The notes: generated by a model from the sequence alone, not told the origin. A stretch of DNA of 64,000 nucleotides from Synechococcus sp. (GCA_047284725.1 JBJBEO010000001.1:1944203-2008202), one strand, 5' to 3'; counted from the stretch's first letter, positions 1-48,006 are shown. Translations and numbers: made by a program.

Positions 1-854
1 GGGTTCTCTATCTGGTGGGCACGCCCATCGGCCACCTCGGAGACCTCTCCGATCGGGCCCGGCAGGTGCTGCGCCAAGTGGACGTGATCGCTTGCGAAGA
101 CACCCGGCACAGCGGACAGATGCTGAGCAGCCTTGGGGCAGTGGGCAAACGACTGAGCTTTCATCAGCACAACACCAGAGGCCGCATTCCCCAGCTGCTG
201 GAGCTGCTGGAGCAGAGGCTCAGCGTTGCCGTGGTCAGCGATGCCGGGCTACCTGGCATCAGCGACCCAGGCGAAGACCTCGTGGCTGCTGTCCGGGCTG
301 CCGGACGCGAGGTGATCTGCGTGCCAGGCCCCTGCGCAGCCACCGCAGCCTTGGTGAGCAGCGGCTTGCCGAGCGGCCGCTTCTGTTTTGAAGGGTTCCT
401 GCCCGTCAAAGGCAAGGAACGCCGGGATCGACTCGCGCTCATCGCCACCGAACGACGCACCACAGTGCTCTACGAGGGCCCGCACCGCTTGCTGCAGCTC
501 CTGAGCGAACTTGCACATCACTGCGGCTCAGAACGCCCCCTGCAGGTGGCCCGGGAGCTGACCAAACGCCATGAGCAGCAGGTAGGCCCCACCATCGCTG
601 CTGCCCTGGTGCACTTCGAGGACCACAGACCCCAAGGAGAATTCACCCTTGTGCTGGGAGGAGCCCCGGCACCGATGCATGAGGAGCACGATGACACCTA
701 CTGGCGCAAGGCGCTGCAGGAGCTGATCGATGCTGGCCTCAGCGCCAACGCCGCCGCCAAACAACTTGCCGCCCGCGGTGTTCGCTCCAAACGGGAGCTA
801 TACGCCCTCCTTCACAGCGATGAAGGCAACGTTGAAGCGCAACGAGCAGACTGA
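1..854 (+). CDS. rsmI: 16S rRNA (cytidine-1402-2'-O)-methyltransferase, 5'-truncated by the window
   Basis: Frame is open from the window start (VLYLVGTPIG). Contains ACEDTR, VSDAGLPGISDPG, FEGFLP and VARELTK motifs. Confidence 0.95.
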   Translation, partial: VLYLVGTPIGHLGDLSDRARQVLRQVDVIACEDTRHSGQMLSSLGAVGKRLSFHQHNTRGRIPQLLELLEQRLSVAVVSDAGLPGISDPGEDLVAAVRAAGREVICVPGPCAATAALVSSGLPSGRFCFEGFLPVKGKERRDRLALIATERRTTVLYEGPHRLLQLLSELAHHCGSERPLQVARELTKRHEQQVGPTIAAALVHFEDHRPQGEFTLVLGGAPAPMHEEHDDTYWRKALQELIDAGLSANAAAKQLAARGVRSKRELYALLHSDEGNVEAQRAD

Positions 855-873
855 CATCAGTTCTTCCGGATTG

Positions 874-1101
874 ATGCTTCAACGTGTGCGTCTGTTGGTG
901 CTCAGCTGCGGCAGCGCGGGGTTGCTGTTTGTTGTGCTCTGCCTCGGGGCTCAGAACCTGAACGACCGTCGCAACCTCAATCTTGGTTTTGGCAAAACAG
1001 CGCCGTTACCAACAGGCTTCATCGTGGGAGTCAGCGCCATCCTGGGCGTGCTCAGCGGTGGAGCAGTGGCCGCTGTGCTGCTGCCGCAACAACGGGACTG
1101 A
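874..1101 (+). CDS. Small two-TM membrane protein (LapA/DUF1049-like)
   Basis: ATG at 874, 75 aa. Two hydrophobic segments flank GAQNLN..LNLGFG..PLP. Confidence 0.7.
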   Translation: MLQRVRLLVLSCGSAGLLFVVLCLGAQNLNDRRNLNLGFGKTAPLPTGFIVGVSAILGVLSGGAVAAVLLPQQRD

Positions 1102-1110
1102 CGGGGCCGA

Positions 1111-1917
1111 TCAGGCGTCGAGGGCGATCAGTGCTCCTTCCAGCACCAAACGGGTAATGCCCCGCGCCAACAGATACCTCGTGGTGAGCGTGAACACACT
1201 GGTATCGGGAACCCGTATCACCCGTTGTTGACGACCGCACTGACGCTTCGCTAAGCGAGGGCTGGCGTAAAGGCAGAGAGCCTGGCGTTCCCGGTCAGAG
1301 GAGTCGAGCGTGCCCAACTCAGGGAAATCACTGAGGGGGCGTGGGTCCAGTTCCACCACCTTGTCGACCAACATGTAGACGCTCTCTGGCAACACGCCTG
1401 GCCCCATGGGTTGGCAGACCAAAGGCTCGTGACTGTCCCCATGGCTGACCCCAGGCAGAATCGCCACTTCATGGAATTGGTTAGCGAAAGGGTCCTCGCC
1501 TTCAGAACCATCAATCTCGACGGAGGCGTCGCCTTCGCTGGCCTCGTTCTCATTGTCGTTGCCACCAAAATCATCGGCGTCATCAAGGGCAAGGGTGCGG
1601 CCATCCCCCTCTTCCTCAAACTTGTCTTCTGCGGTCACCACCGCGCCTGCAACCTGACGCGCTTCAGACTCAGAAGAGGCCTTCGCAACAACGGACGGAT
1701 GCGAGATCGGGGGGTCAGACTCTGAAACCACGAGGCCTTTGGCCCGCGCTGATTTCAAGGCGTCGTACTCGTCTGCGGGCAGGAGGTTTCGGACGGTGCG
1801 ACTGACTGTGTTGACGCTGCACTCAAAAGCATCCGCCAGGGCTGAACTCGGCTCTCCAGAGCGATAACGGGCGACAAGCTCCTGCTTCTGTGTGTCGTTA
1901 AGCCGACTCGCAGCCAT
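1111..1917 (-). CDS. Conserved cyanobacterial protein with N-terminal helix-turn-helix
   Basis: N-terminal LADAFECSVNTVSRTV HTH-like segment, acidic linker and conserved-looking C-terminal domain. Confidence 0.75.
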   Translation of the reverse strand: MAASRLNDTQKQELVARYRSGEPSSALADAFECSVNTVSRTVRNLLPADEYDALKSARAKGLVVSESDPPISHPSVVAKASSESEARQVAGAVVTAEDKFEEEGDGRTLALDDADDFGGNDNENEASEGDASVEIDGSEGEDPFANQFHEVAILPGVSHGDSHEPLVCQPMGPGVLPESVYMLVDKVVELDPRPLSDFPELGTLDSSDRERQALCLYASPRLAKRQCGRQQRVIRVPDTSVFTLTTRYLLARGITRLVLEGALIALDA

Positions 1918-1986
1918 TTCTTATTAGGCACAGTCTCCAACATTAGGTGCCGCCACTCCCGGACCTACTGCCAAAATGGCGCCGTT

Positions 1987-2060
1987 GCTCCCTTAGCTCA
2001 GCTGGATAGAGCAGCTGCCTTCTAAGCAGCCGGTCGTTGGTTCGAATCCAACAGGGGGCG
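1987..2060 (+). tRNA. tRNA-Arg(TCT)
   Basis: Cloverleaf with GCTGC-CT-TCT-AA-GCAGC anticodon arm and GGTTCGAATCC T-arm. Confidence 0.97.
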
Positions 2061-2073
2061 TTCAGTCACACCA

Positions 2074-2106
2074 ATGGCTCTCGATCATGCTGAGAACCAT
2101 TTTTTT
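2074..2106 (+). terminator. Putative intrinsic terminator after tRNA-Arg
   Basis: ATGGCTCTC/GAGAACCAT stem (1 mismatch) followed by a T-tract. Confidence 0.5.
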
Positions 2107-2125
2107 GTGTGGGCACTTAATGATT

Positions 2126-2145
2126 GTGCGCAGCTTGGTGCGCAG
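2126..2145 (+). repeat. Left arm-type site GTGCGCAG-N4-GTGCGCAG
   Basis: gtgcgcagcttggtgcgcag is 19/20 identical to the reverse complement of 5681-5700. Confidence 0.8.
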
Positions 2146-2554
2146 AAGTCCTGCAAAAAATCCGCCTCACCGCGGCAAAGCCGGGCAACAAATCGGCACA
2201 TTCCCTGCGGAAGCGCACTCACGAGCACCCGTCACAACATTTCCAGCTCGTTAGGAGCAGAGTGATGGCACCAATGCATCACCTGTCTCCCTTGAAGCAT
2301 GCAAAGGGTCGTGCCGAAGCTGCTACTCAAGGCCTGGTGCTGACGACTGATGCGCTGACTGCCATGGGTGTCAGGCATCGATGGTTTCGGTAATTGCGAT
2401 GAGACGCTTGGTGATCGCTTTGGGGAGCACCGCCAAGGCAATCGGGACCGTTGAGCGATCCCTTGCAGTCAAAGCTGCCTGATCGCTGAAAAAACGCCAA
2501 CCACAAAAAATTCACTTTTGATGGACGACACTTCAAAAGCAAGGATGGGAGGAA

Positions 2555-2686
2555 TCACGCTTCCTTGTCCCACCTGGCTATTCGATCATTGATCGCCAAT
2601 TGAGATACCGCATAACGCCAAGCGATCAGAGTGCTCAGGCTTGCGCCAAAGGTGAGGAACACCAACAAAGCTTGCTTGACAGTCAC
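2555..2686 (-). CDS. 43-aa single-TM microprotein
   Basis: Manual translation from GTG: MTVKQALLVFLTFGASLSTLIAWRYAVSQLAINDRIARWDKEA*. Confidence 0.5.
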   Translation of the reverse strand: MTVKQALLVFLTFGASLSTLIAWRYAVSQLAINDRIARWDKEA

Positions 2687-3102
2687 AGCATGAGACTCGT
2701 GTATCCCGTCTTATAAGGCAGCGAAGCCTATTGGCGCTTTTGCTACCGAAACACAGCAAACCCACCATTCACGCCTCAACCGCTGCACTCTGGTTCAGAC
2801 GTGACTGCCTGAGGTGCTCCCTGCTTGCCTGTGGGCTTACGGAATGCCTTTTATGTTCCGTTAGTCACTCCCCAGATCTTCGATTAAGTCAGAGAGGTGT
2901 TCGAGCAGGTGGATACGCATCCATCTACTCGACGGAGACGAGATCATCGAGTCGTTGATACAACTTGAACAACGCCACCACCCGATCGGCGGTGGTCATC
3001 GGTTGTGAATGCTGTGGTGATCGACTAGTGCAGAGTGCGGCGCTGTCGATTCCCCCATTAGCTCACGAGTGATCCCTGCATGTTGCGAACACTTTTTGCT
3101 CG

Positions 3103-3222
3103 CTAGAGGAAATCTTCATCATCATCCACCTCAAACGCTTGCAAGGAAAGCCCCGCGACGACCAAGACAAGACCCAGGATTAAGCCCATGACCAAAAATT
3201 GAATATATAGCGACCATCCCAA
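3103..3222 (-). CDS. 39-aa single-TM microprotein with acidic tail
   Basis: Manual translation from TTG: MGWSLYIQFLVMGLILGLVLVVAGLSLQAFEVDDDEDFL*. An internal ATG is an alternative start. Confidence 0.5.
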   Translation of the reverse strand: MGWSLYIQFLVMGLILGLVLVVAGLSLQAFEVDDDEDFL

Positions 3223-3386
3223 ACAGAGCGAGCCTCAGAAAGACTCAATAAATACCTTTTCTAAATTGCAGTGAATAAACCACAATCAAATGAGCATAAA
3301 CCCCTAAAGCGATCAATTTGTAGCTTCCGATGCATCCATGAGACGCCTAGCCCAATTAACACGAAAACGACCTCTGTCATCCACAC

Positions 3387-3473
3387 ATGGAACTAATCCT
3401 AGTGATTTCAGCAATAGCAGCCTCTTCACTCATGGCGCTCAAGATGACACCCAAAAAGGAGGCATCCCAATGA
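3387..3473 (+). CDS. 28-aa hydrophobic microprotein
   Basis: MELILVISAIAASSLMALKMTPKKEASQ*. Its stop overlaps the next start (ATGA). Confidence 0.55.
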   Translation: MELILVISAIAASSLMALKMTPKKEASQ

Positions 3474-3553
3474 CGTTCACGAGCGCAACTCTTGCCGCCT
3501 CCGTTGCAATGACCAGTTTCTTCTACTGGCTCTTGTCACCAGCCATCAATTAG
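3470..3553 (+). CDS. 27-aa hydrophobic microprotein
   Basis: MTFTSATLAASVAMTSFFYWLLSPAIN*. AAGGAGG Shine-Dalgarno 7 nt upstream of the ATG. Confidence 0.6.
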   Translation: MTFTSATLAASVAMTSFFYWLLSPAIN

Positions 3554-3843
3554 GAGTCCCTCTTCCGAACGCCTTCCCATGCTTCCCGCCGTCGGCGTTA
3601 ACAACCAATTCACAGCTGGCCAAACCCGCCCTCAGGGCGCAGACCCGCCGACGGCTCTGACCATTTGATCAGTGTTTTGCCATCGCTGGGCGTGGTCTGC
3701 GCTGAACAGTTGTGCTTGAGGGTGCGGCCAGGGAAAGCCGATCCTGCCTGGGCTGAGCACAGCATCATGCCTAGTGGTAGTGCGCTGGCTTGCGCAAGGA
3801 CTATGACATCACTATGGATAGCAGCCGAACATCCGAGTAACCC

Positions 3844-4020
3844 CTAAAAAGCTTTTGTGTCGCCTTCCTCGTTCCCGTTGAGATGTGTAACCATGCACTT
3901 GGTGATGCAGGTCTTGTCGTCAAGATCGCACTCAGTAATGCACTCAAAGTAGCTATCGACCGTAAGCCACCTCTCGGTGATTGATGCAACGTTGTGCTCA
4001 TTCCTAAAGGTGTCTCTCAT
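3844..4020 (-). CDS. 58-aa Cys-rich protein with C-x3-C-x6-C-x3-C motif
   Basis: MRDTFRNEHNVASITERWLTVDSYFECITECDLDDKTCITKCMVTHLNGNEEGDTKAF*. GGAAGG lies just upstream. Missed by the 60-aa ORF track. Confidence 0.75.
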   Translation of the reverse strand: MRDTFRNEHNVASITERWLTVDSYFECITECDLDDKTCITKCMVTHLNGNEEGDTKAF

Positions 4021-4104
4021 GGCCTTCCCAATTCAGGGCAATAGCCTATGAGTTTCTTTTTCTAGGATCAAATTAATCATTACGCGAAATAAAGTGCCTA
4101 GGCA

Positions 4105-4133
4105 ATTATACTTTTTGCAATAATGATTCTCGC
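4105..4133 (-). promoter_or_regulatory. Perfect TATAAT -10 (4105-4110) with Fur-box-like pseudo-palindrome (4117-4133)
   Basis: The minus strand reads GCGAGAATCATTATTGC-N6-TATAAT and points at the 3844-4020 gene. Confidence 0.55.
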
Positions 4134-4167
4134 TTTAACGCAAGACGGCGTAGTTAGAGCCTGGCGT

Positions 4168-4222
4168 CAAAGCACTAGCTAGCTAGCACCTCCAGGGGGG
4201 GGGCTAGCTAGCTAGTGCTTTG
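4168..4222. repeat. Perfect 20-bp inverted repeat containing (CTAG)3 in each arm
   Basis: caaagcactagctagctagc-[acctccagggggggg]-gctagctagctagtgctttg. Confidence 0.9.
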
Positions 4223-4468
4223 CTTTATGGCCCCCTTTCCGCGCCATCAACGCTCCAAAAGGACTCAACCCCCGACCGATAAGCCATCGAGACCCCTAAG
4301 CAGCAACAATGATCGCGTCGAGGAACAGGCCGCGGCCTACTGTCTTAGCGTTGAAAGGCGGAGGCCAAGGATGACACCTCCAAAACTCCAAGAAAGTGCG
4401 AATTTTATTTCACGAGAGCGCTGCAGACGACTTGGTGATGCTAAGGAGGCAATTGCGAGCACCAGTTT

Positions 4469-4852
4469 ATGTTTTCTAAAAAGATTGCAACCATTTCATT
4501 TTTTGGCATAAGCTCGTTTCTGCTCCATCCCGAGCCTGTCTATTCAAATGTCAATTATTGCGCTGGCATTGGCAGGCATCTTTCTGATGAAATAGCAAAA
4601 GGCAAGTCAGTCCCAGGATCTGGGCCCTACACCACCAACTGGTATATCCGACAATGGGTCTATAACGATTGCGAAACGAAGACAGGTAAAAGCCCATTCT
4701 CCTTTATGGACACCAAACCATCAAAGCCGATAACGGCGGAAGAGATTCAGGTAAAAAAACTTGAGCAGCAAAGACTTCGGGAACACAAAAGAAGGGCAGA
4801 GAAAAATTGCACCAACTTTATGGTTGTCAACGGACACAAAAGATGCATTTGA
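4469..4852 (+). CDS. Hypothetical secreted protein, 4 Cys
   Basis: 127 aa. Basic-then-hydrophobic N-terminus. Visibly AT-richer than the core genes. Confidence 0.6.
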   Translation: MFSKKIATISFFGISSFLLHPEPVYSNVNYCAGIGRHLSDEIAKGKSVPGSGPYTTNWYIRQWVYNDCETKTGKSPFSFMDTKPSKPITAEEIQVKKLEQQRLREHKRRAEKNCTNFMVVNGHKRCI

Positions 4853-4994
4853 TGATCAACAAAATACCAGACTACCGCCCATTAGTTGAACGCATCTTTG
4901 ATCACTGACTCTGCATTGGCTGCCATTTCAGGCAGAAGCGTACTGGCTTGGCGCATGTATCTGGGTAGCTGTCCTCTTGCCCGTGGCCTAAGGA

Positions 4995-5240
4995 TCAAAC
5001 GTTTGGTGCCACAAAGGCAACCAACACGATGAACACGATCGCCGAGATGATGATCCAGATCCCGATCGGCGTCGATGCTCGCTCCCACCAGCCATGCATC
5101 CACCGCACATGCTGAGTGAGCCAGTGGAAGACGCAGGCACCGACGATTGAGCCACAGAACAGTGACCAGCCGCTAACAAAAATCCGTCCACACAGTTCCT
5201 TGTCGACGGCATCCCACTCACAAATGGGTCTGCCGCGCAT
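4995..5240 (-). CDS. Hypothetical two-TM protein
   Basis: Two hydrophobic segments (SLFCGSIVGACVFHWL; IGIWIIISAIVFIVLVAFV). Start is uncertain (5240 or 5285). Confidence 0.4.
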   Translation of the reverse strand: MRGRPICEWDAVDKELCGRIFVSGWSLFCGSIVGACVFHWLTQHVRWMHGWWERASTPIGIWIIISAIVFIVLVAFVAPNV

Positions 5241-5424
5241 ATTGTCGGTCCCCAGCAGTTGAAACGCGATCAGTGCGAGATGCATTGTCTTCGGTTTGCT
5301 GCTGTTCCTCTCTAGATCGAAATTCAGCGAATGTCTCGTTTATTGAACAGAGGCGGCTTACTGCCTCTCCGGCAAGTCTGACCAGTCTGATCAATGTTGT
5401 GCCGTCGCTGCTGATGCTCTGCAT
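5218..5424 (-). CDS. Hypothetical protein
   Basis: 68-aa ATG ORF directly upstream of the 4995 ORF. No motif recognised. Confidence 0.3.
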   Translation of the reverse strand: MQSISSDGTTLIRLVRLAGEAVSRLCSINETFAEFRSREEQQQTEDNASRTDRVSTAGDRQYARQTHL

Positions 5425-5680
5425 GGAACAATTGTCCCCCTGGGCGCTGTCAGAGAGCCGTCAATCCTATGTGGGTTGAGCACGACGGCAACGCCACGGG
5501 GTTGGCGTCGTCGAGGGCAGGTCTTAAACGCGTGACTGATCATCCGCGTCACCAAACCTCTCGCCGCTGTGGAAATGAGACAGTTCATCATTGCCATGGC
5601 CCAAGGATGCAAAAGCGAGCAGACCAAGGGCAAGGCCGATTTTCCTTTTGCTTGGGCTCTGAGCGACAGTGGTCAGTGGC

Positions 5681-5700
5681 CTGCGCACCAATCTGCGCAC
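5681..5700 (-). repeat. Right arm-type site (inverted copy of 2126-2145)
   Basis: Reverse complement is gtgcgcagattggtgcgcag. Confidence 0.8.
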
Positions 5701-5770
5701 TTCCTGTACACGAACGGGAGTTTGTGTAGTCACAGCCTGCGATCTGAATGGCTGACCGATGGCCGTTGCG

Positions 5771-5808
5771 GCAGCCGGCCGTTGGTTCGACCCAAGAGGT
5801 GGAGTCCA
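5771..5808 (+). repeat. attR-like degenerate copy of the tRNA-Arg 3' half
   Basis: gcagccggccgttggttcga-cccaagaggtggagtcca versus 2026-2064 gcagccggtcgttggttcgaatccaacagggggcgttca: 19/20 in the first 20 nt and 32/39 overall by manual alignment. Confidence 0.85.
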
Positions 5809-6056
5809 CACAACCCAGACAGCACTGAGCCCGCTCATGTCTCTCTGAGCGCTCGAACGCCGTACCAGCCTGTTCATCAACATCATGTCCAAGCGGTAGC
5901 CCAGAGCTGCGGCGAGACATTCCAAGCCTCAGGGGGCTAGATCCAAGCAGCCTGTAAGCCCAAAACAGAGGTGCTACCACACCCCTCAAACGACGTCTCG
6001 CGTACAGCCCTGCTTCTTCGTTATGATTGTTTACAATCTTGTCCACACGAGCGATA

Positions 6057-6158
6057 ATGGCCTTCACCACCGCAGACGCAATCGCACTGTTCGCCAGCTT
6101 CGGCGTAGCGCTGTTTGCGCTGAACCTCTACAAACTGACGACCAGCACCAAGAGCTGA
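6057..6158 (+). CDS. 33-aa single-TM microprotein
   Basis: MAFTTADAIALFASFGVALFALNLYKLTTSTKS*. TACAAT -10-like hexamer at 6032-6037. Confidence 0.55.
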   Translation: MAFTTADAIALFASFGVALFALNLYKLTTSTKS

Positions 6159-6176
6159 TAATCCCAAGACAGGGCC

Positions 6177-6377
6177 ATGACGATCGACAGACGATGCAGA
6201 GAGCAGCAACGAGTTGCCAATGAGATCCTGATGGACTTCAAACACACGAAACCAGGCTCCCAGGAGCAATTTCGCTCGTTGAAGACCTTGTCATTCTTGA
6301 TTGGCATGTGGAGCAATTTCTTCAGGCGAGAAGAGACCCGCATGAACGCAGCCCTGGCCCTTGAAGAAAACAGTTAG
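6177..6377 (+). CDS. Small hypothetical protein of a type seen in marine Synechococcus
   Basis: 66 aa. The MDFK.T.PGS.EQ...L.TLSFL.GMW pattern is recalled from picocyanobacterial hypotheticals (not checked). Confidence 0.7.
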   Translation: MTIDRRCREQQRVANEILMDFKHTKPGSQEQFRSLKTLSFLIGMWSNFFRREETRMNAALALEENS

Positions 6378-7351
6378 GTCGTGATAAGCCCTGCAGCCGA
6401 TGCGACAACCAATCGGCACCGGCTACCAAAGAGAGATGGACTGATAGGCCAATGCAGAGCAGGTTGCAGCGTCGAGCCAATCTTCAATGCGTAGAGGAGA
6501 AAAAACATCCCCAGAGGGCCTTCAATCCAATGCGATGTAGCCAAAATCAAGCGAAGCGCGAGTCATTCAATTAGCCGACAGGCCTGTGGTGCGTCGAAAC
6601 TGGCAAATGTGATCCCATGGATCGCTCCAACATTATTTTCTCTGCCTGGCAGCGTCGGACCGCAGATTGAAGCTCTTCCACGACCTTTTCGAGGTGGCGC
6701 AGTCGTTCCTGGGGGGTAGAAAAAGTCATCGCAACTTAGGCTGGTTAGCGACCTTCCATCGCTTTTCAGCTTTGGCATCTATTCATTGAGTCAAGCAGCT
6801 AGACATCAGCGTCACATGAGCTGGCGCCAAGCTTCGACTGAGAGACCTGTTAGCTTGCATGCCAGATTCGCAGCATCCTCTCACCATTTCCGATGTTGCC
6901 AGTGTGCCGTGATCGACAGCACCAGTTGAGCCGATGCACACGCACACCGATTCGTCCCATCGCCCGGGTTGCATCACACTCTGGCCAAGAGCTGAAGATC
7001 TGAACAGACAAACGTCTCGCTTGTCAGCGACCTGACAGACATCAATAGCGAGTCAGTTGACCATCATCCAGACACAACACGGAACGGCCTCCAACAGCGC
7101 AACCAGGCATACGATTCCCTCAGGGTACGTACCCAATACCTCCCTCTCACAGCCATTCGCCTGCTTAAACGGAGTCATTACGCCAAGCTCTTCCTGAGAT
7201 GAAAACAAGGAGGTCGATCAGGCCCAGACAGAGCCTCGGAGACACCGGATCAGGAATCGCGACAACACCGAGATGCCGCGGAGGGAAAGCATCAACGCGC
7301 TTTTGATTCCAACAAATACATGATACCATCAATCAAAATATTCTCCCGCAA

Positions 7352-7834
7352 GTGAAGATTTCCAAGTCTACTTTTTTGGCATCATTCATTGCCGGAGTCA
7401 CCCTTTCAAGCTGCTTTTCTTCTCCCATCACTGACTGGAATACTTCGATCAAAGAGAGATTTTCTGACAAGGCATGGGCATCATCTTTGCAAGAGAAAAC
7501 ACAAAGGCTCCGTGAAACATGGGCGAGAGAAGCCGAGCAGAAGCAAACACAGGATTCAATCAAGTCTCGGCAAATCTCCCTGATCAAGGCTGATCACGAG
7601 AAAGCACTCAAAGCCTGGACTGCGCGCAGGAGATCGACCTGCGAGGCGATTGGCAACAACGATCTGACCTCATTGCCACAGATCATAGGGATGGAAGATG
7701 CTGGCTTTGAACTCAACCAATTGTCATGGGAGAAATGCCTGGAAAGCTACAGCGCCTATCAACCTCAACCTCAGCTAAAGGATTATTTTTATGCCGCTGG
7801 CCGCATCGATCTTTATCAAGATCTCAATCCTTGA
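7352..7834 (+). CDS. Hypothetical lipoprotein
   Basis: 160 aa. Signal peptide with LSSC lipobox, then a charged helical segment. Confidence 0.65.
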   Translation: MKISKSTFLASFIAGVTLSSCFSSPITDWNTSIKERFSDKAWASSLQEKTQRLRETWAREAEQKQTQDSIKSRQISLIKADHEKALKAWTARRRSTCEAIGNNDLTSLPQIIGMEDAGFELNQLSWEKCLESYSAYQPQPQLKDYFYAAGRIDLYQDLNP

Positions 7835-7970
7835 GGTGCATCGCCACCTGTTGGAATCAGTGGCTGTACATTACGGGCAGTCGCGAGGACTGATGATAAT
7901 TTCGATGGCATCGCCGAATCCATCAAGCTTCTCAAGGATCTGCAGCACATTCAGACCGATTATCCAGAAC

Positions 7971-9410
7971 TCACGCCGAGGCTTGACTGAAGAGCAGCGC
8001 CGATTGAGGAGCTAGTTCCGAGGAGAGGGAGGCAGGCACCCCTACCAGCAATGTATCGCTGAGCTCCCCACCGATTGTTTGCCCCCCTGGTACAGAAGCG
8101 CCAAGGTTCAACGAATGCGTGCGGCTGCGATTCAGCACAACGCACAGCCCCGGCCCCTCACCAATCAGGCCATCCCTCCCCAGGCCCTGCCAGCGGAGGC
8201 CACGTTGCCTTAGCTCAGGCAGGCGGCTCCGCAAGGCCAACAGAGCACGAATGGTTCCGTGGAGTGAATCTGGCCAGGGTTCCTCCCAGGGCATCGCTTC
8301 TCGGCAACCAGGTTCTGCCCCACCCTGCAGACCCGCCTCAGTGCCGTAGTAAAGACATGGGGCCCCCAGTTGAAAGACCAACAACACCAGGGCCAGGGAA
8401 AGGGCTTTGGTGTCGCCTTGGAGAGTATGCAAGGCCCTGGGGACGTCGTGACTATCAAGCAGATTGAGCTGAGCGCGATTGACCTCAAGGCGGCCGCTGT
8501 TCATGCAGTCCTGCCAGATCGACAACAGGGCTTCGGTGTCCAGGGGCTGCAAGGGATAGAGAGGATTGGAATAGGTCCGGTCCAGCCGTCCGGCGGCAGC
8601 CCAGCAGAGACAGCTCCAACCCAGGCGGTAATTCATCACCCCATCAAATTGATCTCCGGCCAACCAGGCCCGGGCATCCCCCCAGATCTCCCCAACAATC
8701 CAAGCCTCAGGGTTCAAGGCCCGCGCCATCCGTCGGAAAGCGATCCAAAACGACGACGGCACTTCATCGGGCACATCCAGTCGCCAACCATCAATGCCCC
8801 GCTCCAACCAATGACGTCCCACCTCGAGCAGGTAGTCCTGCACCGGGGGGTGAAGATGGTTGAACTTCGGCAAGGCTGGATCATTCCACCAGCAGCTGTA
8901 TCCACAGGTCTCCCCCTCGGAGGGATAGGCCCGCAGCGGCCAGGCATGCACATGGAACCAATGGCGGTAGGGCGATCGCTCTCCGTTCTCAACCAGGTGA
9001 TGAAACGCCCAGAAGCCGCGGCCACAGTGGTTGAACACCCCATCCAGGATCAAACGCATCCTGCGGCGATGCACCTCCGTCAGGAGGGCATCAAACGCCG
9101 CATCACCACCGAGCAGGGGATCCACCTGCAGATAGTCGTAGGCGTGATAACGATGGTTGGCCGCTGAGCTGAAGATCGGTGTGAGGTAGAGGCAACTCAC
9201 CCCGAGGTCCTGCAGATAATCCAGGGCATTGCACACCCCCCACAAGTCGCCTCCTTGAAAGCCCTGAAGAGAGGGCTCACTCCCCCAGGGCATCCAGACA
9301 AGTCGATGAGGCGATCGGTCACCTCGGCGAAACCGATCCGGAAAGATCTGATACACCGCGGCATCGGCCACCCAGGCTGGCGGCAGGGCGAAATCATCTC
9401 TCAAGACCAA
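7971..9410 (-). CDS. GH13 neopullulanase/cyclomaltodextrinase-like glycosidase
   Basis: YQIFPDRF, DGVFNH, GWRLDVPDEV, IVGEIW, LLDSHD and YYGTE motifs. Start is approximate (TTG at 9404 or 9410). Confidence 0.9.
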   Translation of the reverse strand: MVLRDDFALPPAWVADAAVYQIFPDRFRRGDRSPHRLVWMPWGSEPSLQGFQGGDLWGVCNALDYLQDLGVSCLYLTPIFSSAANHRYHAYDYLQVDPLLGGDAAFDALLTEVHRRRMRLILDGVFNHCGRGFWAFHHLVENGERSPYRHWFHVHAWPLRAYPSEGETCGYSCWWNDPALPKFNHLHPPVQDYLLEVGRHWLERGIDGWRLDVPDEVPSSFWIAFRRMARALNPEAWIVGEIWGDARAWLAGDQFDGVMNYRLGWSCLCWAAAGRLDRTYSNPLYPLQPLDTEALLSIWQDCMNSGRLEVNRAQLNLLDSHDVPRALHTLQGDTKALSLALVLLVFQLGAPCLYYGTEAGLQGGAEPGCREAMPWEEPWPDSLHGTIRALLALRSRLPELRQRGLRWQGLGRDGLIGEGPGLCVVLNRSRTHSLNLGASVPGGQTIGGELSDTLLVGVPASLSSELAPQSALLFSQASA

Positions 9411-9463
9411 AGTCCTTTGCAGGAGCCGCTCTCCACGGCTAGCAATTGAAAAACGACTCGGCC

Positions 9464-10981
9464 ATGGCAGTGACGCCTCTTCTCCTGGCCCTCGATCAGG
9501 GCACCAGCAGTTCAAGGGCCGTGGTGTTTGACCCCCGCGGCAAGCTGATCGCCAGCGCCTCGGCACCTTTAGAGATTCTCTACCCAGCCGATGGTTGGGT
9601 AGAGCAGGACCCCATGGCGATCTGGAGGAGCCAATGCCAGGCGATGGCCTCCCTCGAAACCAAGCTCACGGCGGAGCAGCGTCAGGCCGTGGCCTGCTGT
9701 GGCATCACCAACCAGCGTGAAACAACCGTGCTGTGGCAACGCAGCGATGGCACTCCCTGTGGACCCGCCCTGGTTTGGCAAGATGGACGCACAGCCGATC
9801 TTTGCGATCACTGGAAAAACCAGGGCCTGGAAGCCGACTGGCGACAACGCACCGGCCTGCTGCTCGACCCCTACTTCAGCGCCAGCAAAATCCATTGGTT
9901 GCTCCAGCACGAAGACGCCGCCCGAGCAGCGGCAGACCGCCACGATCTCTGTTTCGGCACAGTGGAAAGCTGGTTGCTCTGGCAGCTCAGTGGCGGGAAG
10001 CAGCACAGCTCCGACATGAGCAATGCCAGCCGCACCTTGCTGATGGACCTGGAGCTCCGGCAATGGGTCGACGATTTCTGCCAGGAGGTGGGGCTGCCCG
10101 CGTCTGCCCTGCCGGAGCTGATGCCGTGTCGAGGCGACTTTGGAGTAATTCATGCGGGGCTGCCCTTTGCGGGGGTGCCGATCCGAGCCCTGCTGGGTGA
10201 CCAACAGGCCGCCACCCTGGGTCAGCTCTGCCTGGATCCCGGTGACGCCAAATGCACCTATGGAACTGGTGCCTTCCTCGTCGTGAACACCGGTTCAGAG
10301 ATGCGCCGCTCCGATTCCGGTCTGCTCACCACGTTGGGCTGGACTGACGCCGACGGCGCCCCCACCTACTGCCTCGAAGGCAGTTTGTTCAACGCCGGCA
10401 CCGTGGTGCAGTGGCTGCGTGACGGCCTGGGACTGATCGACAGTGCAGCCGAGATCAACGACTTGGCCACGAGCGTGGAGTCGTCCGCAGGCGTGATGCT
10501 GGTGCCAGCCTTCACTGGGTGGGGGACACCCCACTGGGATCCGAGTGCGCGCGGATTGATCATCGGCCTCACCCGTGACAGCGGTCGCGGCCAGATCGCC
10601 CGGGCCGCCCTGGACGGCATCGCCCTTTCGGTCGCCAACCTGGTGCAGCTGGCGGAGGCAGCACTGGGGCATGGCCTGGGGGAGCTGGCGGCCGATGGCG
10701 GTGCGGCCGCGTCGGATCCCCTGCTGCAAGCCCAAGCCGACAGCACAGGCCTGCCGGTCAGGCGCCCCGCCAGCCTGGAAAGCACCGCCAGAGGGGTGGC
10801 CTTGCTGGCCGGCGTTGAAGCTGGGCTGATCGGTGATCTACTGGACCTGATCCCAACCCGGCTGGATGGGGCCCAGCGATTCACACCCAAGCTGGACGCG
10901 GAGCAACGGCACCGCTGGTGCCAGCGCTGGGATGACGCCGTCCTTCGCAGCCTGCACTGGAGCGAGAGAGGCCAGGCATGA
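9464..10981 (+). CDS. glpK: Glycerol kinase
   Basis: LALDQGTSSSRA, GWVEQDP, ITNQRETT, DPYFSASK, GDQQAA and KCTYGTG motifs. Confidence 0.93.
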   Translation: MAVTPLLLALDQGTSSSRAVVFDPRGKLIASASAPLEILYPADGWVEQDPMAIWRSQCQAMASLETKLTAEQRQAVACCGITNQRETTVLWQRSDGTPCGPALVWQDGRTADLCDHWKNQGLEADWRQRTGLLLDPYFSASKIHWLLQHEDAARAAADRHDLCFGTVESWLLWQLSGGKQHSSDMSNASRTLLMDLELRQWVDDFCQEVGLPASALPELMPCRGDFGVIHAGLPFAGVPIRALLGDQQAATLGQLCLDPGDAKCTYGTGAFLVVNTGSEMRRSDSGLLTTLGWTDADGAPTYCLEGSLFNAGTVVQWLRDGLGLIDSAAEINDLATSVESSAGVMLVPAFTGWGTPHWDPSARGLIIGLTRDSGRGQIARAALDGIALSVANLVQLAEAALGHGLGELAADGGAAASDPLLQAQADSTGLPVRRPASLESTARGVALLAGVEAGLIGDLLDLIPTRLDGAQRFTPKLDAEQRHRWCQRWDDAVLRSLHWSERGQA

Positions 10982-12546
10982 ACCAGACCTTCGACCTTCT
11001 GGTGATCGGTGGCGGTGCCAGTGGCGTCAGCGTGACCTATGAGGCGGTGCGTCGTGGCCTCAAGGTGGCGCTGCTGGAAGCCACCGACCTGGGCGCCGCC
11101 ACCAGCTGCCGCAGTACCAAGTTGCTGCATGGCGGCGTGCGGTATTTGGAGCTGGCATTCAAAACCGCTGATCCCGCCCAGCTGCGCCTGGTGCGTGAAG
11201 CGTTGATGGAGAGGGGCCATTGGCTGCAGCAGGCGCCTTTTCTGGCGCATCGCCTGGAATTGGCTTTACCCACCACCAACCTTTTAAGCCAGACTTACTA
11301 CCGCATCGGTCTCGGGCTCTACGACGCCCTTGCCGGGCGCAAAGGAATTGGTTCCAGCCGTTGGCTGTCACAACAGCAACTGTGTGATGCACTGCCACAA
11401 CTGAAGCCAGGTCTCAATGGGGGCGTGGCCTACAGCGATGGGCAGTTCGATGACGCCCGCCTCAATCTGCTCCTGGCCCTCACCGCCGAACACGCCGGAG
11501 CACAGATCCAGACTGCCTGCCGCGTGACCCAACTCGAGCTTGATGCACAAGGGCGGATCTGTGGAGCCATCAGCCTCAGAGCCGATGGCCGCGAAGACCG
11601 TTGGCAGGCCCGGGTGGTGGTGAACGCCACCGGGATTCAGGCCGATGCCCTGCGACATCTGGCGGACCCCTCGCTACCGGAGCGGATGCTCACGAGCCGA
11701 GGGACCCATCTGGTGCTCAAAGCCAATCTCTGCCCGCAGGGAATGGGCTTGTTGCTCCCCGCGACCGATGACGGAAGGGTGCTGTTCATGCTGCCGTTCT
11801 ACGGACGCACGCTTGTGGGGACCACCGACACGGCCTGCCCCCTGGCTGCAGCCGCTACCCCCTCCCCCGAGGAAGAGAACTACCTGATCGATTACGTGCG
11901 GCGCTGGTTCCCCCAGCTCAACGACCAGAGCATCAGCAGCAGCTGGGCCGGAGGGCGCCCCCTGCTCAGGCCTGCCGGTGCAGAGCTCAGCAGCAGCCGA
12001 GTGGTGAGAGAGCACGAGGTGGAAACCCTGCCCTGCGGTCTGGTGAGCGTGATGGGCGGGAAATGGACCACTTGCCGGCCGATGGCCCTCGACACCCTGG
12101 AGGCGGTGGAGGCTCAGCTCGACCGCCCCCTTCCACCCCCAAAGCCCTTGCCTTTGCTCGGGGCCGCGGCCGACCCTGCACAGACACCCACCCGGCTGGC
12201 TCACCAACGCACCGACCTCGAGGCTCTGTTACCCGACACCCCTTGGCGCACTGCGCAGAGGAACCACCTGGAGAGCAGCTTTGGCCTCAGGGCAGCAGCG
12301 GTGGTGAACCAGTGGGCTCCTGCCGATCGACAACCCCTTAGCGACGTGATCCCTTTGTGCCGCGGCGAGCTTGCCCACGCCATTCACGCCGAACATGCCC
12401 GCAGCGTCACAGCGGTGTTAGCGCGCCGCTCCCGCCTAGCCATGGTCGATCTGAAGGCCGCTGAAGAGCTGGTTCCGGTGGTGAATGAACTGCTTGACCA
12501 ACACCCTGAGGGGAGCGGTGGGCAAAGCCTCAACCTGGCCCAATAA
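10978..12546 (+). CDS. glpD: FAD-dependent glycerol-3-phosphate dehydrogenase
   Basis: IGGGASG, STKLLHGGVRYLE, DGQFDDARL and GGKWTT motifs. ATGA overlap with glpK. Confidence 0.93.
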   Translation: MNQTFDLLVIGGGASGVSVTYEAVRRGLKVALLEATDLGAATSCRSTKLLHGGVRYLELAFKTADPAQLRLVREALMERGHWLQQAPFLAHRLELALPTTNLLSQTYYRIGLGLYDALAGRKGIGSSRWLSQQQLCDALPQLKPGLNGGVAYSDGQFDDARLNLLLALTAEHAGAQIQTACRVTQLELDAQGRICGAISLRADGREDRWQARVVVNATGIQADALRHLADPSLPERMLTSRGTHLVLKANLCPQGMGLLLPATDDGRVLFMLPFYGRTLVGTTDTACPLAAAATPSPEEENYLIDYVRRWFPQLNDQSISSSWAGGRPLLRPAGAELSSSRVVREHEVETLPCGLVSVMGGKWTTCRPMALDTLEAVEAQLDRPLPPPKPLPLLGAAADPAQTPTRLAHQRTDLEALLPDTPWRTAQRNHLESSFGLRAAAVVNQWAPADRQPLSDVIPLCRGELAHAIHAEHARSVTAVLARRSRLAMVDLKAAEELVPVVNELLDQHPEGSGGQSLNLAQ

Positions 12547-47933: not shown

Positions 47934-48006
47934 GCCGGGATAGCTCAGTTGGTAGAGCAGGCGACTGAAAATCGCCGTGTCCCCAGTTCAAATCTGGGTC
48001 CTGGCA
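47934..48006 (+). tRNA. tRNA-Phe(GAA)
   Basis: GGCGA-CT-GAA-AA-TCGCC arm. Marks the 5' border of the phycobilisome rod region. Confidence 0.97.

Follow-up and report, generated by a model that had tools for sequence, protein, structure and literature searches.

What is the 3.7-kb segment that separates a tRNA-Arg(TCT) gene from a partial copy of the same gene in a marine Synechococcus sp., and can it still move? We analysed it within a window of 64,000 nt, the whole stretch of DNA under study, taken from a genome of 2.58 Mb (G000). Coordinates are counted from the window's first letter unless given as kb of G000; G002, G007 and so on denote same-genus genomes, L185 and so on metagenomic loci, and X5 and X6 sequencing runs. 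An earlier note on this DNA had proposed an integrase-less element carrying a microprotein cassette, either a minimal non-autonomous element or a deletion relic. Our data indicate that positions 2062–5808 are probably the immobilised, fixed and decayed remnant of a tycheposon-type integrative element, and of those two options the relic fits better than the minimal element. The features of the locus are collected in Table 1.

The tRNA-Arg(TCT) gene and its downstream copy

The tRNA-Arg(TCT) gene is the sole tRNA with that anticodon in G000. Its nucleotides 2026–2045, corresponding to tRNA positions 41–60, recur in direct orientation at 5771–5790 with 19 of 20 identities, and the 3' 47-mer of the tRNA aligned with 5771–5805 at 30 of 36 positions with one gap, close enough to the 32 of 39 that had been claimed. 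The alignment scored 40 against a maximum of 26 in 300 shuffles, so that the comparison with shuffled sequence set beforehand as a test came out in favour of the repeats. When up to three mismatches were allowed, the 20-nt repeat had two matches in the window (0.01 expected from shuffles), and no third copy of the direct repeat was found in the 2.58-Mb genome. An Rfam scan of positions 1–12000 (E up to 1) found the tRNA alone, the other four matches lying far under their gathering scores.

The attachment (att) copy is decayed. Mismatches are distributed unevenly along it, with one in the first 20 positions and five plus the gap in the next 16, and the 11 nt preceding 5771, where the anticodon stem and loop would be expected, matched at only 4 of 11 positions by hand count. 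The copy has both bases that set the G000 tRNA apart from that of its relatives (GCAGC and CGTTGG), and its source is therefore this tRNA type, not that of a relative. The type of trailer that follows the G000 tRNA is also found after the tRNA or its partial copies in relatives.

We then compared the locus with other genomes. Nine of 24 other same-genus genomes contained one to three partial tRNA-Arg copies of 44–60 nt, 1.8–45 kb downstream of the tRNA and on the same strand, and four further same-genus genomes had partial copies elsewhere or on other contigs. Proteins of 397–464 aa adjoin the tRNA (G019, G017 and G018) or a partial copy (G002); all four matched the PHROG integrase family phrog_1 (E 1e-10 to 8e-14), and two of them also gave a weak PF00589 match. 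The DNA between the copies in relatives includes VapE-like, D5-type and AAA_25 primase/helicase genes. The island DNA of the window itself did not recur downstream of tRNA-Arg in 15 stretches from 14 relatives. These results showed this tRNA to be a genus-wide hot spot of insertion that has integrases next to it.

The simplest alternative, that no element was ever inserted and that the repeats arose by chance or local duplication in an ordinary variable region, is nearly refuted. It could appeal to the BLAST E value of a single 20-mer, which is only 0.014–0.03 genome-wide, and to the occurrence of the 20-mer pattern in many unrelated bacteria. However, none of the 300 shuffles reached the score of the att alignment, the orientation and position of the copy agree with those in 9 of 24 relatives, it has the two lineage-specific bases of the G000 tRNA, and the right arm motif described below recurs in three independent contigs, equally far from the att copies. 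An origin by site-specific integration is well supported.

Putative arm-type motifs, absence of an integrase and the question of mobility

A pair of inverted 20-mers lies inside the two ends, 65–84 nt after the tRNA on the left and 70–90 nt before the att fragment on the right. The earlier note had placed such a pair 65–70 nt inside the ends, and it is indeed a unique pair with 19 of 20 identities (score 17, shuffle maximum 12). Both 20-mers consist of tandem 8-mers with a 12-nt period. Their TGCGCA core is palindromic and only the outer bases decide between "inverted" and "direct"; read directly, the left 8-mers match GTGCGCAC at 7 of 8 positions. TGCGCA-N4-10-TGCGCA occurs five times in G000, two of them at these 20-mers.

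Arm-type sites are established for tyrosine recombinases such as lambda Int, and similar tandems recurred at comparable positions in other elements. In the element of G002, which bears an integrase, an exact tandem motif of 22 nt lies 61–82 nt after the tRNA and again 124–146 nt before attR. G000 itself contains two intact-looking elements with an integrase beside the tRNA, one at tRNA-Ala(GGC) (766,751–793,053, 26 kb, perfect 47-nt att repeats) and one at tRNA-Thr(CGT) (421,199–438,000, 17 kb, perfect 42-nt att repeats), and both have matched motifs in both arms. We also assembled a metagenomic set of 96 loci holding the 3' 35-mer of tRNA-Arg(TCT). Of 86 loci, 33 had an exact tandem (8 nt or longer, period 10–13 nt) within 180 nt on the downstream side of the att core, compared with 17 of 1720 shuffles, and 19 of 80 had one on the upstream side, compared with 34 of 1600 shuffles; these counts cover only loci with enough sequence, and the loci are not independent, with about 19 downstream motif types among them.

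The motifs of the window have counterparts in this set. In L185, L191 and L238, CTGCGCAC-N4-CTGCGCAC lies 70 nt upstream of the partial copy or att core; in the window, both 8-mers are the same and lie 79 nt upstream. On the other side, TGCGCACAA tandems lie 84 nt after the tRNA in L189 and L237 and are followed by an integrase homologue (a 420-aa open reading frame (ORF) in L189), and a CCTGTGCGCA tandem at 80 nt in L251 is followed by a partial integrase match. In tblastx comparisons of the island with these six loci, no homology was found except the arm motifs. A scan of genome contigs (119 loci) and viral contigs (19 loci) with the 20-mers gave no relative among the 80 genome titles listed, all of which were of unrelated taxa. 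From their position and recurrence, we infer that the 20-mers are arm-type sites of the lost integrase. The signature itself, tandem 8–11-mers with an 11–12-nt period 55–130 nt from the att core, could serve to delimit elements and to pair integrases with their sites.

The integrase begins right after the left arm motif in L189, in L237 and in the tRNA-Ala element of G000, and the window has unrelated DNA there. Pfam searches of 23 ORFs revealed no integrase family, 19 ORFs between the tRNA and the GH13 gene being without any match, and PF00589 had no match near the window. A tblastn search for an integrase remnant with six candidate proteins, four of them integrase homologues, gave none with E up to 50 allowed (best E 0.36). 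No primase, helicase, excisionase or other mobile-lifestyle gene was found in the segment with Pfam or PHROGs, and the integrase, primase and packaging (terS, capsid) families typical of phage-inducible chromosomal islands (PICIs) had no match in either database. The view that an element integrated at tRNA-Arg(TCT), has no integrase and kept its cis sites at both ends is supported by these data.

We next considered whether the segment could leave the chromosome. Read from the sequences, a crossover in the surviving 20 nt would give a T-stem mismatch (CCAAG for CCAAC) and two acceptor-stem mismatches, and excision would thus break the only tRNA-Arg(TCT) of the genome. Att copies elsewhere, in relatives as well as in the intact elements of G000, are 42–47 nt long and near-perfect. 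A marine metagenome at about 92–96% identity spans all 30 bins, including the junction of the island with the GH13 gene, which argues that the segment has been in place for some time; the guess in the earlier note that this copy is now fixed agrees with this. Taken together, the absence of an integrase and of a close cognate integrase, the decayed att copy, the damage that excision would do to the sole tRNA-Arg(TCT), the pseudogene fragments in the cargo and the sharing with wild relatives point to a relic, as do the perfect 47- and 42-nt att repeats of the integrase-bearing elements of G000, which are unlike the copy found here.

It appears quite improbable that the segment is instead a still-mobilisable non-autonomous element akin to a cis-mobilizable element (CIME), in which an integrase acting in trans from a resident or incoming element would move the microprotein cassette. 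Such mobility is consistent with the two intact arm motifs, which match the motif family found beside integrases in metagenomes, with the integrases of the same family that G000 encodes at tRNA-Thr(CGT) and tRNA-Ala(GGC), with the integrase-less inserts bearing perfect att repeats that 3 of the 96 metagenomic loci have at this tRNA, and with an ambiguous joint of 2047 to 5792 in one metagenome contig. However, the att copy is without the anticodon-loop part (4 of 11 over the first 11 nt of the 47-nt block shared by relatives), and a crossover would damage the T-stem and acceptor stem of the sole tRNA-Arg(TCT). The proposal of an integrase in trans also fares poorly because the G000 integrases sit at other tRNAs and are 28–30% identical to the L189 integrase that is linked to the arm motif; the available part of Hackl et al. 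describes such integrases as tRNA-specific (bioRxiv 10.1101/2020.12.28.424599). In addition, relatives at about 92–96% identity share the segment.

Several observations nevertheless weigh against an immobilised remnant. Both arm motifs are undecayed, with perfect 8-mers at left and right, whereas 6 of 36 positions and the whole anticodon-loop part are gone from the att copy. Perfect arms beside a decayed att copy are unexpected under uniform neutral decay, and the arms could still be under selection; the uneven spread of mismatches along the att copy is a further point of this kind. The contig joining 2047 to 5792, from run X6, could represent an empty-site form, but its short side has 22 letters, which is under the caution limit for such joints, and it was not counted as an empty site; the joint would be equally explained by a less decayed att copy beside a contig break. 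Finally, in L206, L214 and L219 the tRNA-Arg(TCT) gene is separated from a perfect copy of 46–47 nt by inserts of 4.0, 0.9 and 4.5 kb, with matched arm motifs (p 0.005–0.045, shuffling) and no integrase in Pfam or PHROGs. There are therefore segments with intact sites and no integrase, and these may be mobile.

Of these three contigs, two end at or just past the second copy, where a neighbouring integrase-bearing element is possible, and in L214 the second copy is followed by the arm motif of another element. The cargo of the inserts includes TPR/trypsin-like and unknown membrane proteins, and the second copy in L206 was called a tRNA by ARAGORN, its 5' half being unlike that of the real tRNA. 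Since perfect repeats and matched arms occur there with no integrase in between, picocyanobacterial tRNA-Arg(TCT) genes might harbour a class of integrase-less "mini" elements (0.9–4.5 kb), moved by integrases in trans as CIMEs are by integrative and conjugative elements (ICEs), with the window segment as a decayed member; we hold this to be rather unlikely. Apart from its att core, such an element would have no more than two tandem arm-type sites and a handful of small genes, with translationally coupled 28- and 27-aa hydrophobic peptides and a divergent 28-aa peptide as typical cargo.

Table 1 Features of the tRNA-Arg(TCT) locus (window coordinates; aa, amino acids; TM, transmembrane; pN/pS, ratio of nonsynonymous to synonymous change).
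Feature	Position	Strand	Remarks
tRNA-Arg(TCT), integration target (attL side)	1986–2061	+	ARAGORN; Rfam tRNA 66.7 bits
tRNA trailer, imperfect hairpin and T-run	2062–2111	+	hairpin by eye; not called by the terminator scan
Left 20-mer GTGCGCAG-CTTG-GTGCGCAG, putative P'-arm integrase (arm-type) site	2126–2145	+	
Small membrane protein, 43 aa (GTG start)	2555–2686	-	homologues of ~35 aa in G061 and G043; pN/pS 0.35–0.67
Pseudogene of a ~50-aa protein family, in-frame TAG and frameshift	2864–3000	-	intact paralogues at G000 421.8 kb and 789.1 kb
Microprotein A, 28 aa from ATG, one TM segment and acidic tail	3103–3189	-	pN/pS 0.15 against G061
Microprotein B, 28 aa; stop overlaps start of C (ATGA)	3387–3473	+	pN/pS 0.41
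Microprotein C, 27 aa, hydrophobic	3470–3553	+	pN/pS 0.27
150-nt dispersed repeat, copy 1	3647–3778	+	10 copies in G000; 538-kb homology ends inside
Cys-rich 58-aa protein, C-x3-C-x7-C-x3-C	3844–4020	-	pN/pS 0.18–0.20; weak phrog_665 match
CTAG-rich hairpin, unique in genome	4168–4222		26-nt arms, -28.8 kcal/mol, z -5.1
127-aa protein, signal-peptide-like N-terminus (from sequence only), lineage-restricted orphan	4469–4852	+	
96-aa membrane protein	4995–5285	-	48% identical paralogue at G000 591,489–591,815 (other inversion junction)
150-nt dispersed repeat, copy 2, direct to copy 1	5368–5515	+	
C-terminal 24-codon remnant of a 115-aa gene, in repeat copy 2	5440–5511		intact at G000 371 kb and 787 kb
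Right 20-mer CTGCGCAC-CAAT-CTGCGCAC, putative P-arm integrase (arm-type) site	5681–5700	+	
Decayed attR, copy of tRNA positions 41–76 without the anticodon-loop part	5771–5808	+	sequence alignment
Distal part of the same low-GC island, up to the inversion junction with GH13	5809–7970		small conserved genes 6027–6158 and 6177–6377; 160-aa ORF

Small genes and possible exchange between islands

The longest ORF wholly inside 2062–5770 has 127 aa, and the earlier statement that no inner ORF is longer holds for that interval; ORFs of 123–160 aa straddle the right end (5524–6070) and have no Pfam match. Five small ORFs, of 43, 28, 28, 27 and 58 aa, are conserved as coding sequence in other species, so that five ORFs of the proposed cassette (27–58 aa) proved to be conserved coding genes. 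Purifying selection is demonstrable for at least five microprotein genes, the counts behind the pN/pS ratios in Table 1 being small. In G061, which has a third copy of the block with microproteins A, B and C (70% identical in DNA), the three ORFs have exactly the same lengths and the changes are mostly silent. Intact homologues of the 58-aa protein occur in G061, G011 and G015, G000 has two paralogues of it, and it has four clusters among 5.8 billion proteins; the 127-aa protein has just three relatives there (79–94% identity, metagenomic), and a query of metagenomic contigs with it returned no related loci. A protein atlas held no informative neighbours for the 58-aa or the 96-aa protein. That the small proteins are nutrient-regulated, as had been suggested, gained no support: the island has no NtcA-type GTA-N8-TAC site (three in the whole window, none before 22576), and promoter and terminator scans were at shuffle level. 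The five small genes, which standard callers miss, are a useful by-product of the analysis.

We further examined the repeats within the segment. A block of 960 bp (2762–3724) is duplicated at G000 537,672–538,580, 1.7 kb downstream of a tRNA-Gly(GCC) call, with 89% identity. About 280 nt of it are identical (3388–3670 and G000 537.7–538.0 kb), which suggests recent gene conversion between two islands or, otherwise, very strong constraint on the B–C pair and its downstream region. The contigs of run X5, which is labelled metatranscriptomic and flagged as probably DNA, cover 11 of 30 bins, and its sole contig inside 2062–5808 belongs to the 538-kb paralogue; no inference was drawn from this run. 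Further cargo modules recur at G000 421, 549 and 775–800 kb, and both integrase-bearing elements of G000 have cargo modules in common with the window's island. Each module was also found alone in other contexts in G061, G011, G015 and G043, with no tRNA gene in the stretch fetched, and the modules therefore behave as independent flexible genes.

The 150-nt repeat combines terminal parts of two families of small genes (…PSLLMLCVEQL… and …LCGLSTTATPRGWRR), and homology between islands tends to end inside it. The gene whose 24-codon remnant lies in copy 2 weakly matches a phage family whose function is unknown. The long central hairpin that had been pointed out earlier is real. In a near-identical isolate it is one CTAG unit (4 nt) shorter, and a wild relative has 99 other letters in its place. 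The hairpin has six CTAG, a tetranucleotide that is about eightfold under-represented in the genome (1297 against about 10,084 expected from length).

These data bear on a composite origin, in which the att copy and the arms would be the scar of one old insertion, and the cargo would have come later and piecemeal, by homologous recombination or gene conversion, without ever travelling with the element. We regard this as a real possibility, if not a probable one. It accords with the 960-bp block held in common with the island near tRNA-Gly(GCC) (89–100% identity), with the end of that block inside a dispersed repeat, with the solo modules of G061, G011, G015 and G043, and with indels of 117 nt at the hairpin and 139 nt at 5287–5425 between G000 and the wild relative. 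On the other hand, the intact element at tRNA-Thr(CGT) carries the same types of module distally, some 400 nt from attR, just as the window segment does. The composite origin overlaps with the decayed-remnant explanation rather than excluding it.

The far end of the island and comparison with known systems

The earlier note had taken the 3.7-kb element as the whole story. However, the low GC content that begins at the tRNA does not end at 5808 and continues to about 7970 (0.45–0.55, compared with 0.60–0.70 outside), and the island reaches position 7970 and ends at an inversion junction. A GH13 gene is adjacent to tRNA-Arg in no relative searched. In G007, G015, G009 and G016, the GH13 gene is followed by a tRNA-Thr(GGT)/tRNA-Tyr cluster, which in G000 lies at 592 kb, and in G007 and G013 the tRNA-Arg island has a right flank that corresponds to G000 588.8 kb, running downward. 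The swapped flanks of the GH13 gene and the island imply an inversion of about 1.36 Mb in G000. As judged from these alignments, G000 is inverted with respect to four relatives, and one end of the inversion falls in or at the island downstream of tRNA-Arg(TCT) (window 5809–9566), the other in or at that downstream of tRNA-Thr(GGT) (G000 588.8–592.1 kb). The junction between the island and the GH13 gene is bridged in a near-identical isolate and in a wild population (about 96% identity).

We searched both junctions for tRNA fragments. Nothing above noise was found for a second tRNA-Arg fragment at the other junction (G000 588.7–592.1 kb) or for a tRNA-Thr(GGT) fragment in 2062–8000. An 18-nt match at G000 592.2 kb was ruled out as a tRNA-Arg fragment, being the T-arm of tRNA-Tyr. 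Positions 7903–7925 (TCGATGG…CGAATCCATCA), 45 nt from the GH13 stop, resemble the T-arm of relatives' tRNA-Arg and lie where the outermost att scar would be expected; as such a scar they were rejected, with a score under the shuffle maximum. In the distal part of the island, the 66-aa ORF at 6177–6377 has about 70% DNA identity to sequences at varied places in 12 of 45 other same-genus genomes and a paralogue of 59% identity at G000 1,762.9 kb, and the small TM ORF at 6027–6158 is common to G057 and G061. Elsewhere in the window, a tRNA-Phe(GAA) gene lies at 47934–48006; it is reported as the head of the phycobilisome rod region, and with tycheposon-like insertions, in marine Synechococcus.

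The history of the decayed remnant might have run as follows. A tyrosine recombinase would have inserted an element into the 3' half of tRNA-Arg(TCT). The integrase gene, which in relatives lies just after the left arm site, was probably deleted or replaced, the att copy presumably decayed afterwards, and part of the cargo may have been exchanged, through recombination or gene conversion, with that of other islands linked to tRNAs in G000. A later inversion of 1.36 Mb would have joined the far end of the island to the GH13 gene. The segment today would be a fixed piece of a 5.9-kb island with microprotein genes, a secreted orphan protein, a small membrane protein and pseudogene debris. The locus offers a worked example of how a tycheposon-type island ages in Synechococcus, through integrase loss, att decay, cargo exchange and inversion between tRNA-linked islands. 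This is an ordinary fate for such islands, and the by-products overturn no current views.

The comparison with known systems draws on the available parts of the papers cited. Hackl et al. name tRNA-Arg(tct) as one of seven island tRNAs of Prochlorococcus, likewise name tRNA-Thr(GGT), and describe degenerate tycheposon remnants with partial tRNAs scattered in islands (bioRxiv 10.1101/2020.12.28.424599). The window segment is like a tycheposon in that the insert lies between a full tRNA-Arg(tct) and a partial repeat at the proximal end of a low-GC island, and in that relatives have tyrosine recombinases and primase/VapE-type genes at the same site. It differs in having no integrase, not even a fragment, in its att copy of 36 nt, decayed in contrast to an attachment motif of about 40 nt, in its cargo of microprotein genes rather than nutrient-uptake operons, and in its host, Synechococcus and not Prochlorococcus. 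No description of arm-type tandem motifs was found in the part of that paper available to us, and a limited full-text search of open papers found none that links "tycheposon" to non-autonomous, integrase-less or arm-type, the sole co-occurrence concerning other elements. In marine Synechococcus, the tycheposon-like insertions at tRNA-Phe(GAA) contain tyrosine recombinase genes, whole or partial, and have a remnant of the tRNA at their far end; iterative integration was proposed for them (Grebert et al. 2022, PMC8995045). Those insertions are tRNA-linked and in the same genus, whereas the window has another tRNA and no recombinase gene.

Enzyme-less derivatives are also known for other elements, namely clusters of attC sites lacking integron-integrases (CALINs) for integrons and MITEs (miniature transposable elements with inverted repeats) for insertion sequences (PMC11389934). 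They resemble the window segment in recombinase loss and are in principle movable in trans; the segment has neither attC sites nor a target-site duplication, and the recombination chemistry is different. Unlike MITEs, it has its inverted 20-mers 65 and 70 nt inside, and its ends are direct tRNA-derived repeats. It also differs from PICI-like satellites, since it has no integrase, primase or packaging genes by Pfam and PHROGs. CIMEs, which have lost the integration genes and retained attL and attR, were defined in the ICE and integrative and mobilizable element systems of Firmicutes (Guedon et al. 2017, PMC5704250). The integration genes are lost here as well; attL is the intact tRNA, the arms are intact and the attR core is decayed. 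Loss of integration genes, decay of an integrated element and tandem accretion at the 3' end of a tRNA gene are shared with CIMEs, which, however, move with a conjugative helper; in the window attR is decayed and no helper is known, so that the resemblance is one of logic only (PMC5704250). Among known kinds of feature, the segment is most likely a remnant of a tycheposon-type island that resembles a CIME.

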